A stretch of DNA of 64,000 nucleotides from Escherichia coli (GCF_044324875.1 NZ_CP172185.1), one strand, 5' to 3'; counted from the first letter of the stretch, positions 22,551 to 31,463 are shown. Program-made: numbers and translations. The notes: generated from the letters alone by a model not told the origin.

Positions 22551-23486
22551 ATGGCACTGCCAATTCTGTTAGATTGCGACCCAGGTCATGATGACGCTAT
22601 CGCAATAGTTCTCGCCCTCGCCTCACCAGAGCTTGATGTCAAAGCAATTACGTCTTCCGCCGGAAACCAGACACCAGAAAAAACCTTACGCAATGTTCTG
22701 CGTATGCTGACCTTGCTTAATCGCACCGATATTCCGGTGGCAGGCGGCGCGGTAAAACCGTTAATGCGTGAGTTGATTATCGCGGACAATGTGCACGGCG
22801 AAAGCGGTCTCGACGGCCCGGCATTACCGGAACCGACGTTCGCACCGCAAAACTGTACGGCGGTGGAGCTGATGGCGAAAACGCTGCGTGAAAGTGCGAA
22901 ACCTGTCACGATTGTTTCTACCGGGCCGCAAACTAACGTTGCCTTGCTGCTCAATAGCCATCCGGAACTGCATAGCAAAATTGCTCGTATCGTGATTATG
23001 GGCGGCGCAATGGGGCTTGGTAACTGGACGCCTGCGGCTGAATTTAATATTTACGTTGACCCGGAAGCGGCAGAAATTGTTTTCCAGTCAGGGATCCCGG
23101 TGGTGATGGCCGGTCTGGATGTTACTCATAAAGCGCAAATCCACGTTGAAGACACCGAGCGTTTCCGCGCGATTGGCAACCCTGTTTCAACCATTGTTGC
23201 CGAACTGCTGGATTTCTTCCTCGAATATCATAAAGACGAAAAATGGGGCTTTGTCGGCGCACCGCTGCATGACCCATGCACCATCGCCTGGCTGTTAAAA
23301 CCGGAGTTGTTTACCACTGTTGAGCGCTGGGTTGGCGTGGAAACACAAGGGAAATATACCCAGGGTATGACGGTTGTTGATTATTATTATCTGACCGGCA
23401 ATAAACCGAATGCCACTGTAATGGTCGATGTTGATCGTCAGGGCGTTGTTGATTTACTGGCTGATTGTCTGAAATTTTACGCTTAA
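22551..23486 (+). CDS. rihA: Pyrimidine-specific ribonucleoside hydrolase
   Basis: 311 aa [34 protein letters not shown]...; DxDxxxDD nucleoside hydrolase motif. Confidence 0.95.
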
Positions 23487-23569
23487 CACACGTCATTGAT
23501 TAAGATCACCACGCGTTACCCGGGTGGTCTTAATCTGTTTATCTCTTTTTCTTTCAAGATATAAATGCA

Positions 23570-25240
23570 ATGGATAATGCAGAACTCGCCATTGGTATCG
23601 ATCTCGGTACTACCAATAGTTTAATTGCCGTCTGGAAAGACGGTGCCGCGCAATTAATTCCAAATAAGTTCGGTGAATATTTAACACCATCCATAATTAG
23701 CATGGATGAAAATAATCATATTTTAGTCGGAAAACCCGCTGTATCACGGCGCACTTCGCATCCGGATAAAACGGCAGCGTTATTTAAACGTGCAATGGGC
23801 AGTAATACCAACTGGCGGTTAGGCAGCGACACATTTAACGCGCCAGAACTGTCCTCTTTGGTATTACGCTCATTAAAAGAAGATGCCGAAGAATTTCTGC
23901 AACGTCCGATTAAAGATGTGGTGATCTCCGTTCCGGCTTATTTCAGCGATGAACAACGCAAGCATACCCGTTTAGCAGCGGAGTTAGCCGGGTTAAATGC
24001 GGTACGCTTAATTAATGAACCCACAGCAGCTGCGATGGCATATGGCCTGCATACGCAACAAAATACCCGCTCGCTGGTTTTTGATCTCGGTGGCGGCACG
24101 TTTGACGTCACGGTGCTCGAATACGCCACGCCGGTGATTGAAGTTCACGCCTCCGCTGGCGACAACTTTCTTGGCGGCGAAGATTTTACTCATATGCTGG
24201 TGGATGAAGTTTTAAAACGCGCCGCAGTGGCTAAAAACATGCTCAACGAAAGTGAGCTGGCAGCCCTGTACACCAGCGTGGAAGCGGCAAAATGCGGCAA
24301 TCAATTACCGCTGCAAATTAGCTGGCAGTATCAGGAAGAAACGCGTGAGTGCGAATTTTACGAGAACGAACTGGAAGATTTGTGGTTGCCGCTGCTCAAT
24401 CGCTTGCGAGTGCCGATTGAACAGGCGTTGCGCGATGCACGTCTGAAGCCCAGTCAAATCGACAGTCTGGTGCTGGTTGGCGGCGCATCACAAATGCCGC
24501 TGGTGCAGCGAATCGCCGTACGTCTGTTTGGCAAATTACCATATCAAAGTTACGACCCGAGCACCATTGTCGCGCTGGGCGCAGCAATCCAGGCCGCCTG
24601 CCGCTTACGCAGTGAAGATATTGAAGAGGTGATCCTCACTGATATTTGCCCTTACTCGTTGGGTGTTGAAGTTAACCGCCAGGGCGTTTCCGGCATTTTC
24701 TCGCCGATAATTGAACGAAACACCACTGTACCGGTGTCGCGTGTAGAAACTTACTCGACCATGCACCCGGAACAGGATTCAATTACGGTTAACGTCTATC
24801 AAGGAGAAAATCACAAAGTTAAAAATAACATTCTGGTGGAATCCTTTGATGTGCCGTTGAAGAAAACCGGGGCTTATCAGTCGATTGATATTCGCTTTAG
24901 TTATGATATCAACGGGTTGCTTGAAGTTGACGTGCTTCTGGAAGACGGCAGCGTTAAGTCCAGAGTCATTAATCACAGTCCTGTAACATTGAGCGCACAG
25001 CAGATTGAAGAGAGTCGGACGCGGTTATCCGCATTGAAAATTTATCCGCGCGATATGCTCATCAACCGTACCTTTAAAGCCAAACTGGAAGAGTTGTGGG
25101 CGCGGGCGCTGGGTGACGAGCGAGAAGAGATCGGCCGGGTGATCACCGATTTTGATGCGGCGTTGCAGTCAAACGATATGGCCCGCGTCGATGAAGTTCG
25201 GCGACGGGCGAGCGATTATTTGGCTATTGAGATCCCTTAA
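23570..25240 (+). CDS. hscC: Hsp70-family chaperone HscC
   Basis: 556 aa MDNAELAIGIDLGTTNSLIAVW...; Hsp70 ATPase motifs IDLGTTNS, DLGGGTFD. Confidence 0.95.
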   Translation: MDNAELAIGIDLGTTNSLIAVWKDGAAQLIPNKFGEYLTPSIISMDENNHILVGKPAVSRRTSHPDKTAALFKRAMGSNTNWRLGSDTFNAPELSSLVLRSLKEDAEEFLQRPIKDVVISVPAYFSDEQRKHTRLAAELAGLNAVRLINEPTAAAMAYGLHTQQNTRSLVFDLGGGTFDVTVLEYATPVIEVHASAGDNFLGGEDFTHMLVDEVLKRAAVAKNMLNESELAALYTSVEAAKCGNQLPLQISWQYQEETRECEFYENELEDLWLPLLNRLRVPIEQALRDARLKPSQIDSLVLVGGASQMPLVQRIAVRLFGKLPYQSYDPSTIVALGAAIQAACRLRSEDIEEVILTDICPYSLGVEVNRQGVSGIFSPIIERNTTVPVSRVETYSTMHPEQDSITVNVYQGENHKVKNNILVESFDVPLKKTGAYQSIDIRFSYDINGLLEVDVLLEDGSVKSRVINHSPVTLSAQQIEESRTRLSALKIYPRDMLINRTFKAKLEELWARALGDEREEIGRVITDFDAALQSNDMARVDEVRRRASDYLAIEIP

Positions 25241-25247
25241 ACACGGC

Positions 25248-25279
25248 TGCCGGATGCGGCATAAACGCTGCATCCGGCA
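25248..25279. repeat. REP palindromic element between convergent hscC and djlC
   Basis: GCCGGATGCGGCATAAACGCTGCATCCGGC palindrome of REP type. Confidence 0.6.
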
Positions 25280-25299
25280 TCGGCGCAAAAAACACTTCC

Positions 25300-26751
25300 T
25301 CAGCTAAACAACATCGCGATTTTTCCGAGAGCATAACCTATCACCAGCACCGTTAAGCTGATTTTGATAATGCTGGTAATGCTCTGTGGTTTTTCATCCT
25401 CATCATTTTTTTCTTCGTGGTTTTCAGGTGTTGGCTCATCGACATCTTCATCCTCCGGCTCGAGTTTCACTTTCGTCAACAGCATCCGGGTGATAATGGC
25501 CTCTAATGGATGAGCATCTCCACCTTCCAGCCTTGTATTAAGACGGGCCAGCATCTCTTGTTTCGGGAACGCTTCCAGCACAACCTGTTCCGCTACCCGA
25601 TACAAATCCAGTAACGGTGAATCTTGTTCTGTCTCGCTACCGACTCTCGATTTCCACCACGCCCATGCTTTGCGCTTGAAGAATAACGACTCAATAAACG
25701 ATTGACCTAACGGCGATAATTTTCCGCTATGTAAAATTTCCGCCCATAACAGCCGCGTCCGGGCGCTCTCACCAGGAACATATTTCAACGGTTGACCTTG
25801 CGCATCAACCATGCTCTGCGCTTCGATAACCATCACTAACAGCGCGAAATAATCCGGGCAATGACGCTTGCTCCACTGCAACAACAAATTATCGGCTTGT
25901 GTAGATGGGTAACTCTCCCGGTATGCGCAGAGATCGGCAAGCAGGCTTTCCCCCTCGCCACAGTACAACCGTTGCGCACACTGGTAATAACGGGCATCTT
26001 CGCTTTCTGGTTCTTCTGCTTGCCACTGTTGGGCAACAGGAATGAGTTCCGCCATACCTCTTTTCACCGAGCTGTACCAGCGCAACAGTTTGCGATGTAA
26101 CTTGACATCATCAGGAATGAACCACGGACCTTCCATTGCCATAAACGCAGTGACATAGTCGGGATGGTAACGGCAACAGCGTTCCAGCGCGAAGTAATAC
26201 TCAACAGTCTGGTTCTGCAACGCGACGGGATATTCCAGAAGGCTAAGGAAATCGAAACAATCACCAGCCTGAATGGCCTCAAGAAAAGCCTCCCTTTCTT
26301 CCTCATCCATTCCTTCGCTGTCATTAAACGAATGCCAGTTCAAACGCTCTGCCAGCAAAGAAGCACAATTTAATGAAAGATATCGCGCTTCTATAGCGAT
26401 TGCACACAGCGGCCAGCGTAATTGATCGACATCCTCCATGTTCCAGGTATTTAATTGCTGAATAAATTTCTGCCAGGCGGAGGGCTGAAAACGATCACTT
26501 TCTGAATCCAGTAATGTCCTGAATGCACGTAGTATTTCATGTTCAGCGGCGGCATCTTTTTCTTCATCATCTGCTTCCTCGACAGGATTTACCGCCAGTC
26601 GCAGCGCCTCTTCATAGGCCTGGCGTAATGCTTTAAACCCCTGCGGATCGGTTTCGGGATGACACAACGGTAAGCGAGCAAGATAAGCCTGGCGGATAAT
26701 GTCTATTTGCGTCGTGCTTTCAATTTCGAGGATTTGCCAACATGTTTTCAT
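25300..26751 (-). CDS. djlC: J-domain-like membrane-anchored co-chaperone (HscC partner)
   Basis: 483 aa [39 protein letters not shown]...; C-terminal hydrophobic anchor [19 protein letters not shown]; paralogous to djlB. Confidence 0.9.
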
Positions 26752-27455
26752 AGGTCGCTCACATCCTTAAGCGTTACCGGGCATTCAGGCTGGGCAGTCA
26801 ATGGCTGCCAGGGAAGCGTGGCATAGAAACGATCGCTTCCCGCTGCCAGCTCTTCGAACATCCGACTCCCGGCGCTATCGTATTTGTACAGGGTTAGCGC
26901 CTCGCGTAACGAAGCGTTGTCTTCGCATTGAGAAGATTGCCAGTAGAGACGCCCTAGTGAATAGGCAGAAAAATAGTGCATCCAGCTGTGATAGTAATGG
27001 TGTGCTCGGACATAGATGCGCGATTGCAGCCATAAACTCTCTTCTTCCGTCAGCCACTTGTTGAGCACACCGACCCGTGACAGAAACCCCATTCGAACAT
27101 AATCCCAGGCTTTGATTCCCCCTTCTCCACAGCACATAGCGGTTTGGGCAACGAATTGGGTATAAATCAACCCTCTCTCCGAGCCACCAGCAATTAATGC
27201 TTTCCACTCTTCAGGGGAAGAGCGATGCCATGTCAGATATAAGCCAGCTAAATCATTGGCATGACCATCATCGGTCATCTGATAAATAGTCTGAATTAAA
27301 TCATCACGATTATTTATTCCCCAGGATGATGAGAGATCGAATTCTTTTATCCCGGTATACATTTTTGGCGAGTCATGCGCGGGCTTGCAACCCTGATTAA
27401 GTATTTCCATGGGCGTAGAAAGCGCAAAAAGAAGATATTGTTCTTCCTTATTCAT
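26748..27455 (-). CDS. ybeU: Conserved hypothetical protein YbeU (paralog of YbeR)
   Basis: 235 aa [33 protein letters not shown]...; 4-bp overlap with downstream djlC start. Confidence 0.9.
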
Positions 27456-27556
27456 TTGTTAATAATCCCTTAAGTGCATTAACTGACTACTTTTTTATTA
27501 TTGATGAGTATAAACTTGACGCTTTCAAAATAAAAAGAAAATCGAAGTATTCACAC

Positions 27557-28111
27557 ATGAATAAAAAATTAATGTATATATTCGCAATATTTATAGTTGC
27601 AGCAATAACCTGTATTAGTCAACCCAAGAAAACGACGTTGCGTGATAAAGCCATGGTGAATTATGCCTTTGATTATTTAAGCTCACCGGGCAGTCTTCCA
27701 TTCACCACGGCAGCCACGGAGCTTTCCGCGATTCATGGTCACTCAACGTCGCAATATCGCCTTGGAGAATTTTATCTTCATGGTAGCGACGGTAAACCAC
27801 TGGATTATACACAGGCGAGATACTGGTATGAGCAATCAGCGGAACAGGAAAATCCACGCGCGCAAAGTAAACTGGGGTGGATCTACCTCAAAGGTCTGGG
27901 GGTCAAACCCGATACCCGTAAAGCAATTCTCTGGTATAAGGAAGCAGCTGAACAAGGGTATGCTCATGCTCAATATACTTTAGGTTTGATCTACAGAAAC
28001 GGCTCAGGTATTAATGTTAACCATTATGAATCTCAAAAATGGTTAAAACTGGCCGCCAAACAACATTACAAAAATGCGGAAAGATTACTTGCCGGGCTTC
28101 CCGCACATTAA
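27557..28111 (+). CDS. ybeT: Sel1-repeat (TPR-like) protein with N-terminal signal/anchor
   Basis: 184 aa; repeats of the AQ..LG..Y..G.GV..D...A..WY..AA.QG type. Confidence 0.9.
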
Positions 28112-28120
28112 CGTCGACTG

Positions 28121-29548
28121 TCACCCGAACAGATGGAGTATTTTCCCTATCAAACCAGCAAAGATAAAAATATAGAAAATAATTTTGATGACGCCCAGAC
28201 AGCCCGGCCCACCATCGTCAACGGGCATTGGCTGCGGTTGCGGCTCCGGTTCAACAGTTTGCTTCTCGGTAAAATTCGCCGCCTGAATTAATAATCGACG
28301 AATAATTAATGCTTCCAGTGGACAACGATCTTCTGCATCAAGGCGGCTCACAATCGGCATTAATGATTCTTCTGTCGGTTGGCTGGCCTGCACTAATTGT
28401 TTGGCAACTAGATATAATGGCCATAAGGGATGTTCTGTATCACGCGTGAGTGAGATCCGCGGCTTACGTCCTTTGTGCAAAACCATCTCGACCAGAGAAC
28501 GCCCCAGCGCAGAGAGTTTTTCATCACTGAGTATTTCGTATAAATGAAAACGCGTACGAGCGCTGTCACCAGGGACATAAAGTAGCGGTTTTCCCTGATC
28601 GTTAACCAGATCACGCGCTTCAATCATCATCACCACTAATGGGTAATAATCGACCCGATGCTGACGGCACCATTGCAACATTAAAGCATCCGCCTGGGTG
28701 GAGGGATACTCGCGCCAGTAGTCACAAAGTTCTGCCAGCAGGCTTTCGCCTTCTCCACAATAGACGCGTTGCGCGTATTCATAATAACGCGCATCTTCAT
28801 TATCAGGTTCAGCTTCCCGCCACGACCGGGCGTAATCCAGAAGTTCGGGGATTCCCAGGCGGCTTGCGCTATACCAGCGGAGTAAATTTCTGTGCAGTTT
28901 TGCATCATCGGGGATAATCACTGCGCGATGTTGCGCTAAATACAATGTCAGCCATTCTGGATGCGATGACCAAATCCGAGCGAACATTTGGTAAAAATCG
29001 ATGGTGTCATTTTGCACGGCAACGGGCAGATGCAGAATGGTCTGGAAGTTAAAAACATTCCCCTTCGCAATGGCATATAAAAAGGATTCCAGTTCTTCTT
29101 CGTCTATTTCCCCGGTGTTTTCCTCCTGCAACCACCGCAGTCTTTCTGCTAATAACACCACGCACTCGAAGGATAAATGGGCAGTGTTCATGGCGATTGT
29201 GCACAGCGACCAGCGTAATTCATCAATCTCTTCCATCGAGCAATAATTTAATTGCTGAATGAATCGCTGCCAGGCGGAAGGCAGAAAACGTTCGCTATCA
29301 GAGGCGAGTAACGCACGAAAGGCGAGCAGAATTTCATGTTCTGCAACTTCATGTTCTTCTGGTTGCCAAACAGATTTAGCAGGGGACTGCGCAATCCGTA
29401 GCGCATCCTCATACGCCTGACGAAGTTGTTTAAAACCCTGCGGATCTGTTTCTGGATGAAAGGACGGTAACAAGGCCAGATAAGCGCGACGGATAATATC
29501 GACGTCAGTCGTTTGAGGTATATCGAGGATCTGCCAGCAAGTTTTCAT
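28121..29548 (-). CDS. djlB: J-domain-like membrane-anchored co-chaperone (paralog of DjlC)
   Basis: 475 aa [39 protein letters not shown]...; C-terminal hydrophobic anchor. Confidence 0.9.
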
Positions 29549-30252
29549 AGGTCGCTCATATCCTTAAGCGTTTCCGGGCATGTGGGGTAGTCAACCAGTG
29601 GTTGCCAGGGTAAGGTCGCGTAATATGCATCGTCACTGGCAAATAATTGATAAAACATATCATTGCCGGAATCGTCGTATTCTTTACGCGCTAAGAATTC
29701 ACGTAATAACTGAAGATTATCATCTTCGGGAGACTGCCAATATTGCCGACCAAAGGTATAACCGGCAAAGTATTGCTGCCAGTTACTATAATAACGTAGC
29801 GCCCGTAGATGAATGCGCGACTGGATCCATAGACTTTCTTCTTCGCTTAACCAGTTATTAAGTACGCCCATTCGGCTTAAAAAACCCATCCGGACATAAT
29901 CCCAGGCTTTAATTCCTCCCTCACCACAGCATTCGGCGGTGCTGGCGACAAATTGCGCATAAGCCTGACCTTGCTCATTTAATTCAGCAAGATAGTCACG
30001 CCATTCACATGGCGAATAACGAAACCAGCAGTGATAAAACCCTGCCAACCGCGCGGCATGACCGTTATCAATCATTCGGTGAATTGTGCGCAGCAGGTCA
30101 TCACGGTCATCAATTCCCCAGGAGGAAGAAAGGTCAAAAAAGCGTGTACCTAAATACATTTTGGGAGATGAATGCGAAGGTAAACAGCATTCATTGCGTA
30201 TTTCCATCGGAGTGGAAAGTGCAAACAATATTTTTTGCGACTCCATGTCCAT
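29545..30252 (-). CDS. ybeR: Conserved hypothetical protein YbeR (paralog of YbeU)
   Basis: 235 aa from ATG (reverse complement at 30250-30252) after AAGGA RBS: [23 protein letters not shown]...; ORF-track start 30279 is 9 codons longer. Confidence 0.88.
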
Positions 30253-30409
30253 ATAATTTATCCTTAAATATTCATTCAATGAATATTAACCACGTTGCGA
30301 GGCTCATTTATTTATACTTTTCTGACGCAACATAATACGCATAAAATAAGGCTTACGCAAAAATGGAACACATAAAAATATAATATGTTTTATATGCAAC
30401 CATAAGGAA

Positions 30410-31393
30410 ATGATAATGATTTTTACGTCAAGTTGCTGCGATAATTTATCAATAGATGAGATTATCGAACGTGCTGAAAAAGGCGATTGCGAGGCTCAAT
30501 ATATTATTGGGTTTTATTATAATCGCGATAGCGCAATTGACTCTCCGGACGACGAAAAAGCCTTCTACTGGCTGAAGCTGGCCGCTGAGCAAGGCCATTG
30601 TGAAGCACAATATTCCTTAGGGCGGAAATACTCCGAGGATAAAAGCCGTCATAAAGATAATGAGCAAGCCATCTTTTGGCTGAAAAAAGCTGCCCTACAA
30701 GGCCATACTTTCGCTTCCAACGCCCTTGGCTGGATACTGGATCGTGGAGAAGACCCCAACTATAAAGAAGCGGTTGCCTGGTATCAGATAGCCGCGGAGA
30801 GCGGAATGTCTTATGCGCAAAATAATCTTGGATGGATGTACAGAAATGGCAACGGAGTCGCTCAAGACTATGCGCTGGCATTTTTCTGGTACAAACAAGC
30901 TGCATTACAAGGCCATAGTTACGCACAAGACAATCTGGCCGATCTTTATGAAGACGGAAAAGGCGTTGCTCAAAACAAGACACTCGCCGCATTCTGGTAT
31001 TTGAAAAGCGCACAGCAGGGTAATCGGCATGCCCAGTTTCAAATTGCATGGGATTATAACGCTGGCGAAGGGGTGGACCAGGACTATAAGCAAGCCATGT
31101 ACTGGTATCTGAAGGCTGCCGCTCAGGAAAGCGTCGGCGCTTACGTCAACATCGGTTATATGTATAAACATGGACAAGGCGTTGAGAAAGATTATCAGGC
31201 CGCCTTTGAATGGTTTATGAAAGCCGCTGAATGCAATGACGCCACTGCCTGGTATAACCTGGCCATTATGTATCACTACGGAGAAGGAAGACCTGTCGAT
31301 CTCCGACAGGCTCTCGACCTGTATCGTAAAGTTCAGGCATCCGGTACCAGGGATGTCAGTCAAGAAATCCGTGAGATTGAAGATTTACTGTAA
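30410..31393 (+). CDS. ybeQ: Sel1-repeat protein
   Basis: 327 aa with at least 7 Sel1-like repeats (A.YNLGWMYRNGNGVAQDY..AFFWYKQAA.QG). Confidence 0.9.
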   Translation: MIMIFTSSCCDNLSIDEIIERAEKGDCEAQYIIGFYYNRDSAIDSPDDEKAFYWLKLAAEQGHCEAQYSLGRKYSEDKSRHKDNEQAIFWLKKAALQGHTFASNALGWILDRGEDPNYKEAVAWYQIAAESGMSYAQNNLGWMYRNGNGVAQDYALAFFWYKQAALQGHSYAQDNLADLYEDGKGVAQNKTLAAFWYLKSAQQGNRHAQFQIAWDYNAGEGVDQDYKQAMYWYLKAAAQESVGAYVNIGYMYKHGQGVEKDYQAAFEWFMKAAECNDATAWYNLAIMYHYGEGRPVDLRQALDLYRKVQASGTRDVSQEIREIEDLL

Positions 31394-31406
31394 GAGATAA
31401 AAACAA

Positions 31407-31430
31407 GGGCCGGGGAATTTTATTCGGCCC
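31407..31430. terminator. Bidirectional hairpin between convergent ybeQ and ybeL
   Basis: GGGCCG-gggaattttatt-CGGCCC hairpin in the short convergent spacer. Confidence 0.45.
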
Positions 31431-31463
31431 ATATTCTCTTTATTGCTGTGCGAAATCAGACCA

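Follow-up and report, generated by a model that had tools for sequence, protein, structure and literature searches.

In a 64,000-nucleotide stretch of an Escherichia coli chromosome (GCF_044324875.1 NZ_CP172185.1, referred to below as the window), we analyzed a cluster of genes located next to hscC, the gene of a specialized Hsp70. Our best explanation of this region as a whole, to which we assign a probability of roughly 0.8, is that it represents the co-chaperone part of the HscC system: two old operons, ybeU-djlC and ybeR-djlB, each encoding a DUF1266 protein and a J protein of the Djl family, share a single Hsp70, and the DUF1266 protein acts as partner of its Djl protein. The partnership of HscC with DjlC, the HPE motif and the tail anchor are already published; DUF1266 as a third component is the new lead. 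Of the three Hsp70s of E. coli, HscC is the one about which least is understood. The known phenotypes of the hscC system are sensitivity to Cd2+ and to UV. A DUF1266 subunit, if confirmed, would offer the first experimental handle on HscC function.

Gene names were taken from the RefSeq annotation of identical sequence, the 6.1-kb region being 100% identical in several E. coli chromosomes. The RefSeq gene order is rihA, hscC (+), djlC (-), ybeU (-), ybeT (+), djlB (-), ybeR (-), ybeQ (+) and ybeL. A preliminary description of this stretch had placed open reading frames at positions with which the RefSeq calls agree, and had rightly regarded the cluster as present in K-12, where it is an annotated and partly characterized system. 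The features of the region are as follows.

23487..31461: whole accessory block hscC-ybeQ, flanked by the stop codons of rihA and ybeL; homology with block-less strains ends at 23486 and restarts at 31462
23570..25240, plus strand: hscC, specialized Hsp70, 556 amino acids, from the RefSeq annotation of identical sequence
25247..25281, no strand: GC-rich hairpin resembling a repetitive extragenic palindromic (REP) element, CTGCCGGATGCGGCATAAACGCTGCATCCGGCATC, between convergent hscC and djlC
25300..26751, minus strand: djlC, 483 amino acids, with J domain, tetratricopeptide repeat (TPR)-like solenoid, acidic linker and C-terminal transmembrane helix
26587..26751, minus strand: DjlC J domain, amino acids 1-55 (family profile against solved J domains, E 1e-4)
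26653-26661, minus strand: DjlC HPE codons, CATCCCGAA
25306..25380, minus strand: DjlC C-terminal transmembrane tail anchor, from hydrophobicity and the model
26748..27455, minus strand: ybeU, DUF1266 protein, 235 amino acids (Pfam PF06889); its stop overlaps the djlC start
27456..27556, no strand: AT-rich divergent promoter region of ybeU-djlC and ybeT, GC content down to 0.42-0.44
27557..28111, plus strand: ybeT, 184 amino acids, hydrophobic N-terminal segment and three Sel1 repeats (Pfam Sel1, three matches)
28121..29548, minus strand: djlB, 475 amino acids, djlC paralogue (RefSeq, alignment)
29450-29458, minus strand: DjlB HPE codons, CATCCAGAA
28133-28201, minus strand: DjlB transmembrane helix
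29545..30252, minus strand: ybeR, DUF1266 paralogue of ybeU, 235 amino acids from the RefSeq start
30253..30409, no strand: AT-rich divergent promoter region of ybeR-djlB and ybeQ, GC content 0.38 in the interval 30000-30499
30410..31393, plus strand: ybeQ, Sel1-repeat protein without signal sequence, 327 amino acids (325 from the RefSeq start at 30416)

For ybeR, RefSeq places the start at an ATG at 30252, while the longest open reading frame begins with a TTG at 30279.

The association of DUF1266 with Djl and HscC extends beyond E. coli. YbeU matches Pfam PF06889 (DUF1266) with an E value of 5.2e-45 over residues 41-216, YbeR is linked to the family via its 61% identity to YbeU, and NCBIfam holds no models for DjlB, DjlC, YbeU or YbeR. 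Word-indexed homologue searches got no further than Enterobacteriaceae; distant relatives came from an exhaustive profile search with YbeU over representative proteins, which returned 1016 relatives. When genomes were scanned with an alignment of 11 YbeU-family sequences as query, 78 loci were returned from Escherichia, Klebsiella spallanzanii, Leminorella, Pragia, Rahnella, Erwinia, Pectobacterium, Brenneria, Limnobaculum, approximately 55 Pseudomonas species, Marinobacter and Bowmanella, and all open reading frames in these loci were compared with the window proteins. Four loci were truncated by contig ends, leaving 74 informative ones. The triad of DUF1266, then Djl, then HscC, which spans several orders of Gammaproteobacteria, was found in 73 of the 74, with an HscC-like gene abutting Djl in the same proportion (73/74). 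In 72 loci hscC is convergent to the DUF1266-Djl pair, and in one (L064) the same three genes are co-directional. The DUF1266 stop and the Djl start overlap in all 77 cases, by 4 nucleotides in 65 of them and otherwise by 1, 10 or 13. The same triad, with HPEEDP or HPEDDP in the J protein, occurs in two loci with more distant DUF1266 proteins (22-28% identity; L089 and L091), which we take to be Vibrionaceae from their matches in the AlphaFold database (AFDB), and in three metagenomic loci (L006-L008). The preliminary description had proposed to examine co-occurrence of the module with hscC, and had treated YbeU and YbeR as no more than members of that module; in these loci, DUF1266 is the gene whose presence follows that of the J protein throughout.

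One metagenomic protein, P0382 (L005 233-1726, 497 amino acids), combines both types of protein in a single soluble chain, in which a J domain (HHPEDDPEGF) is fused to TPR repeats and, at the C-terminus, to DUF1266; its 6.8-kb contig has no visible Hsp70 gene. Among adaptor, inhibitor and client roles for DUF1266, this J-TPR-DUF1266 fusion favors that of a working subunit. An AlphaFold2 model of YbeU, built from a 25-sequence alignment, is compact and all-alpha with 13 helices (predicted local distance difference test score, pLDDT, 92.7; predicted template modelling score, pTM, 0.90), and no solved structural relative of this fold was found. Residues R121, R127, H65, D118 and E139 are invariant or nearly so in the family, as are several tryptophans. 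The closest full-length YbeU relatives are small cytoplasmic proteins, and distant ones are often secreted or multidomain. Separately, AFDB entry A0A2X3M2D5, a 627-residue E. coli protein named "Hsc56 co-chaperone of HscC", is 97% identical to YbeU over its first 233 residues and looks like a YbeU-DjlC read-through or a fused gene call at the ATGA overlap.

Within the window, the two operons are clear paralogues. DjlC and DjlB share 52% identity across 437 amino acids (E 6e-158) and YbeU and YbeR share 61% identity end to end over 235 amino acids (E 9e-110), far beyond chance. The 4-bp ATGA overlap is exact at both DUF1266/J junctions (26748-26751 and 29545-29548), each reading ...CCTATGAAAAC..., with ATGA common to the stop and start codons. 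Both the paralog alignment and the overlap had been noticed in the preliminary description and hold here without change. At the DNA level, homology between the units covers 26393-27428 against 29190-30225 (66%) and 25754-26026 against 28551-28823 (69%). Third-codon identity at conserved residues is only about 46-51% between the units, which indicates that the duplication is old. The comparison gave no alignment in the Sel1 genes, promoters or intergenic regions of the two units; djl and ybeU/R alone align. The demonstrable duplication is therefore that of the two-gene DUF1266-Djl pair only. A separate tandem duplication of the same pair is found beside one convergent Hsp70 gene in a Vibrio-like locus (L091 3409-12215).

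The Djl proteins themselves were compared with J proteins of class C. The J-domain fold is recognizable, with the catalytic loop connecting helices II and III, but the invariant HPD tripeptide is replaced by HPE, located at residues 31-33 in both DjlC and DjlB. The DjlC HPE lines up with the HPD of DNAJB2. Among full-length enterobacterial homologues, HPE is present in 99 of 100. The 78 genome loci encode 80 Djl proteins, of which 79 have it and one, a DjlC of Escherichia sp., has YPE; the family signature can be written as HPExDP[QE]GF. A canonical HPD elsewhere, at DjlC residue 196, was rejected as a candidate: it lies inside the helical solenoid, DjlB has HPE at this position, and the family alignment shows no conservation there. 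The replacement of HPD by HPE is thus no alignment artefact, a possibility that the preliminary description had named as one that would refute it, and HPE in DjlB and DjlC has been noted as the one tolerated HPD variant (PMC10410713; PMC13254874).

The hydrophobic C-terminal anchor anticipated for both J-like proteins was likewise recovered, as one helix in each. Maximum Kyte-Doolittle means over 19 residues were 1.99 and 2.37, and the only 19-mers above 1.6 were at residues 464-482 in DjlC and 450-468 in DjlB. In DjlC and DjlB alike, the only transmembrane helix thus lies at the very end of the chain, as in tail-anchored proteins. In the AlphaFold2 model of DjlC (pLDDT 84.7), the J domain forms helices 4-8, 16-29 and 36-54. 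After a disordered stretch (58-68) comes an all-alpha domain (72-427), and an acidic, disordered linker (432-455) then leads to the transmembrane helix (458-482). Outside Enterobacteriaceae, Djl proteins are longer (880-915 amino acids) with 2-4 C-terminal transmembrane segments, and DjlC residues 1 to approximately 420 align with their N-terminal halves.

Several parts of this system have been characterized before. As Kluck 2002 is summarized in a review (PMC8215388), the HscC ATPase is stimulated by DjlC only, among the J proteins tested, and insertion of DjlC into the plasma (inner) membrane has been shown experimentally (Peschke 2018 as cited in PMC8215388). DjlB is approximately 50% identical to DjlC and assumed to have the same function, both being tail-anchored, and hscC mutants as well as djlB djlC mutants are Cd2+-sensitive (PMC8215388). 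Together, specific stimulation of HscC by the DjlC J domain and insertion of DjlC into the inner membrane imply that HscC is recruited to the cytoplasmic face of that membrane. The membrane-tethered HscC system proposed in the preliminary description is supported, and already in the literature (PMC8215388). For Salmonella LT2 and K-12, YbeQ-YbeR-DjlB-YbeU-DjlC has been described as one gene cassette (PMC6935094). Our observations on E. coli HscC-DjlB/DjlC (formerly YbeW-YbeS/YbeV) agree with published accounts in genes, HPE motif, tail anchor and paralogy; they differ in that the DUF1266 proteins YbeU and YbeR emerge as the most constant neighbors of Djl. No functional study of DUF1266, or of YbeU/YbeR as components of the HscC system, was found in the literature searched.

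These observations suggest the following arrangement. Beside the convergent hscC, the old tandem paralogues ybeU-djlC and ybeR-djlB each supply a cytoplasmic all-alpha DUF1266 protein translationally coupled, via ATGA, to an inner-membrane tail-anchored J protein. The two would be made in about equal amounts and would form a stoichiometric complex. DUF1266 would most likely bind the TPR-like solenoid of Djl as a specificity or regulatory subunit, and the complex could select or gate the targets onto which HscC is loaded at the membrane. The two pairs may then serve as alternative targeting modules for one shared Hsp70. On balance we somewhat favor a more far-reaching version, in which YbeU-type DUF1266 would be an obligate, physically associated third subunit of HscC-Djl systems across Gammaproteobacteria, the pairing with a cognate solenoid would define HscC targets, and the pairs would have multiplied, in Escherichia/Salmonella and independently in a Vibrio-like genome, to diversify the targets of a single Hsp70.

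A number of observations weigh against assigning DUF1266 this role. One Leminorella locus (L014) has DUF1266 and Djl and no HscC within 7 kb, and the first Djl paralogue of the duplicated Vibrio-like pairs (L091; 873 amino acids as called) has no J domain at its start. For DUF1266 proteins at greater distance, which are secreted or multidomain, no Hsp70 link was seen, which argues that the domain is not intrinsically a co-chaperone. Since the loci were found by a DUF1266 search, they indicate that YbeU-like DUF1266 accompanies Djl and HscC and not that every HscC has a DUF1266 partner. Stimulation of HscC by DjlB is an assumption of the review cited above (PMC8215388). The role proposed for DUF1266 is itself derived from the order of the genes, their translational coupling and a single fusion protein.

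The closest known systems offer two other roles for a third, co-encoded protein. In CbpA-CbpM, a small protein specific for the J protein of the same operon blocks its J domain (PMC8215388), and by analogy DUF1266 might be a negative regulator that binds the J domain of its cognate Djl and holds HscC off until a signal arrives. The strict 1:1 translational coupling would suit an inhibitor as well as a subunit, and H-NS in any case keeps the system silenced (PMC5797941; PMC7582179). We nevertheless regard such an inhibitor as unlikely. The gene order is reversed, DUF1266 being encoded upstream of the J gene and not downstream, CbpA partners DnaK, and the J-TPR-DUF1266 fusion suits a working subunit better than a releasable inhibitor.

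The second precedent is HscA-HscB-IscU, which resembles HscC-Djl-DUF1266 in several ways: the Hsp70 is not DnaK, it has a class C J protein to itself, it works without a nucleotide exchange factor, and a third protein is encoded alongside (PMC8215388). Specialized bacterial Hsp70s can have a single client, as HscA/HscB have in IscU (PMC8215388), so that DUF1266 could conceivably be a dedicated client, or an enzyme controlled by the system in its activity or assembly, whose conserved R121, R127, H65, D118, E139 and tryptophan residues might form an active or binding site. This analogy appears slightly less probable still than that with CbpM: the YbeU model is compact and confidently folded with no recognizable catalytic fold, and no exposed Hsp70-binding segment was identified. 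The systems also differ in that HscB is soluble with a canonical HPD and IscU is an Fe-S scaffold, whereas Djl, with its HPE and TPR-like solenoid, is anchored in the membrane. The closest known systems also include J proteins of eukaryotes that contain TPR repeats, and membrane recruiters of Hsp70 (DNAJC7, DNAJC3/p58IPK, Sec63/Sec72, TOM70).

The preliminary description had gone further than the two-gene pair, proposing that a three-gene module (J protein, DUF1266, Sel1) was duplicated in tandem and that the Sel1 proteins are adaptors for a membrane-tethered HscC. Several features speak for it: a divergent Sel1 gene occupies the same relative position in both units, YbeT and YbeQ have Sel1 repeats in common, ybeQ is kept beside the cluster in Salmonella, where YbeQ is 49% identical to that of E. 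coli, and ybeT is SlyA-induced and in the H-NS regulon together with ybeU-djlC (PMC5797941). Both proteins are of the Sel1-repeat type, with tandem repeats of approximately 36 residues. In YbeT, Pfam recognizes three Sel1 repeats (E 1e-11 to 3e-5), and YbeQ shows repeat similarity in multiple registers, the Sel1-type families MerG, MotX, ExoR and AlgK being matched below cut-offs. Even so, YbeT and YbeQ match each other at the level of Sel1 repeats only (approximately 35% identity in many shifted registers), and they are unlike in length and N-terminal topology signals, YbeT having 184 amino acids with a hydrophobic N-terminus and YbeQ 327 without such a segment. The hydrophobic segment of YbeT may be an export signal or an anchor; if YbeT is exported, its Sel1 part would lie across the membrane from the cytoplasmic Djl domains.

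Gene order in other species is also at odds with a three-gene unit. Sel1 genes were found beside the cluster only in Escherichia (ybeT and ybeQ; L009-L011) and Salmonella (ybeQ alone), and none was detected within the 10-kb flanks on either side of approximately 70 other DUF1266/Djl/HscC loci, even at E <0.01. In Salmonella (L087) the order is ybeL-ybeQ-ybeR-djlB-ybeU-djlC-hscC-(412-amino-acid protein)-rihA, with both DUF1266-Djl pairs abutting directly and no ybeT between them. K. spallanzanii, whose cluster also lies at the ybeL site, has a single DUF1266-Djl pair and lacks a Sel1 gene. With DNA homology confined to djl and ybeU/R, the tandem duplication stands for the DUF1266-Djl pair and is not confirmed for the Sel1 genes, and the adaptor role proposed for them is not supported; we consider this reading improbable. 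Sequence comparison indicates that ybeT and ybeQ are lineage-specific neighbors and not core parts of the system. Attention is thereby redirected from the Sel1 proteins to DUF1266 as a testable partner of the HPE-type J protein.

Returning to two DUF1266-Djl operons around one Hsp70, we infer a history in four steps: an ancestral DUF1266-Djl-HscC triad; a shorter Djl in Enterobacteriaceae; then, before Escherichia and Salmonella separated, duplication of the DUF1266-Djl pair and acquisition of ybeQ; and insertion of ybeT in Escherichia.

Two further genes were noted at this site. The 412-amino-acid gene in the hscC-rihA gap of Salmonella (L087 15082-16320) has no Pfam or NCBIfam match and no E. 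coli counterpart at that position. Escherichia sp. MOD1-EC7003 (L009 3648-5986) carries a third Djl-like gene in the ybeL-ybeQ gap, split into parts of 93 amino acids (with FHPENDPDGF) and 344 amino acids (ending in a transmembrane helix). It has no upstream DUF1266 gene, and the gene after it encodes a 321-amino-acid protein whose N-terminus is signal-like.

In E. coli the block as a whole is accessory and dispensable, and it is silenced by H-NS. It is missing in approximately 19% of complete genomes, where the rihA-ybeL gap is 44 bp long and contains a REP-like hairpin. Counts among 5426 complete E. coli genomes are given below.

rihA/ybeL flanks: 5424/5426
hscC: 4409/5426
djl region, any match: 4447/5426
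full two-unit region: 3689/5426
unit-1-specific DNA (26900-28100), at least 80% covered: 4249/5426
unit-2-specific DNA (28300-31000), at least 80% covered: 3711/5426

In a common haplotype, 28249-31055 (2.8 kb) is deleted, removing ybeR and leaving stubs of djlB and of ybeQ, the latter without its 5' part. Strain INSC1002 has undergone unequal crossover within 26389-26816 / 29187-29614, near the ATGA junction, giving a djlC/djlB-ybeR-ybeQ hybrid with pseudogenes (djlC frameshifted, ybeQ with an internal stop). One strain carries an insertion sequence of the IS5 family in djlB, and in strain AHM8C160RI three small hypothetical genes occupy the rihA-ybeL slot instead. The divergent promoter regions are AT-rich (GC content 0.38-0.44), and a scan for consensus promoters and terminators gave fewer promoter-like sites than in shuffled sequence. 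In K-12, ybeT and ybeU-djlC belong to the H-NS regulon and are induced by SlyA (PMC5797941), and in an hns mutant of enteroaggregative E. coli (EAEC) 042 a DUF1266 gene was up approximately 300-fold at 25 C (PMC7582179). DjlB, DjlC and HscC are under proteomic detection in exponential growth (PMC8215388). Silencing by H-NS, abundance below proteomic detection and dispensability in about a fifth of E. coli would explain why studies in K-12 see little of the system.

A very improbable reading of the block as an anti-phage defence or other conflict island, and not a housekeeping chaperone system, could draw on presence/absence polymorphism at a fixed site with alternative cargo in one strain, on H-NS silencing (PMC5797941; PMC7582179) and on the scoring of ybeT in one phage screen by transposon-directed insertion-site sequencing (TraDIS; preprint), but the ybeT knockout was like wild type on phage challenge, no link between HscC and phage defence was found in the literature searched, the triad lies at varied chromosomal sites, the leuS-ybeL site shared by Escherichia, Salmonella and Klebsiella is consistent with vertical inheritance there, and we rejected defence as the main explanation on a PADLOC scan of eight proteins without meaningful matches (none for HscC, DjlB, DjlC, YbeU or YbeR, and trivial ones, E >1e-4, for the Sel1 proteins).

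HscC itself scored 377-385 bits against the NCBIfam DnaK and HscA models, well short of the 620-822 that these models require, in line with a third Hsp70 subfamily; it is neither DnaK nor HscA and is encoded next to its own J protein. At their C-termini, HscC-type proteins (L006-L086) share a conserved tail of acidic and hydrophobic residues, which reads ...ALDELR[LYF] in Pseudomonas and, in Escherichia, ...DYLAIEIP, and it is a matter of speculation whether this tail is a docking motif for the TPR-like solenoid of Djl. Within E. coli hscC is unusually diverse, the best match to the window allele being only 90-95% identical in 1432 genomes, and the whole 9-kb region is approximately 96.7% identical to most E. 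coli strains, among them one developed in the laboratory.

Some minor observations concern the gene ends. The convergent ybeT and djlB have stop codons 9 bp apart (28112-28120), which leaves no space for a terminator, and a GC-rich hairpin (31407-31430) lies between ybeQ and ybeL, which also converge. The djl and hscC genes of many Pseudomonas loci, likewise convergent, overlap by 4 nucleotides at their 3' ends (median gap -4). Finally, one scan locus from a record titled Paenibacillus sp. USDA918EY (L013) is a contig-end ybeU fragment 98% identical to E. coli, for which assembly contamination is likely.

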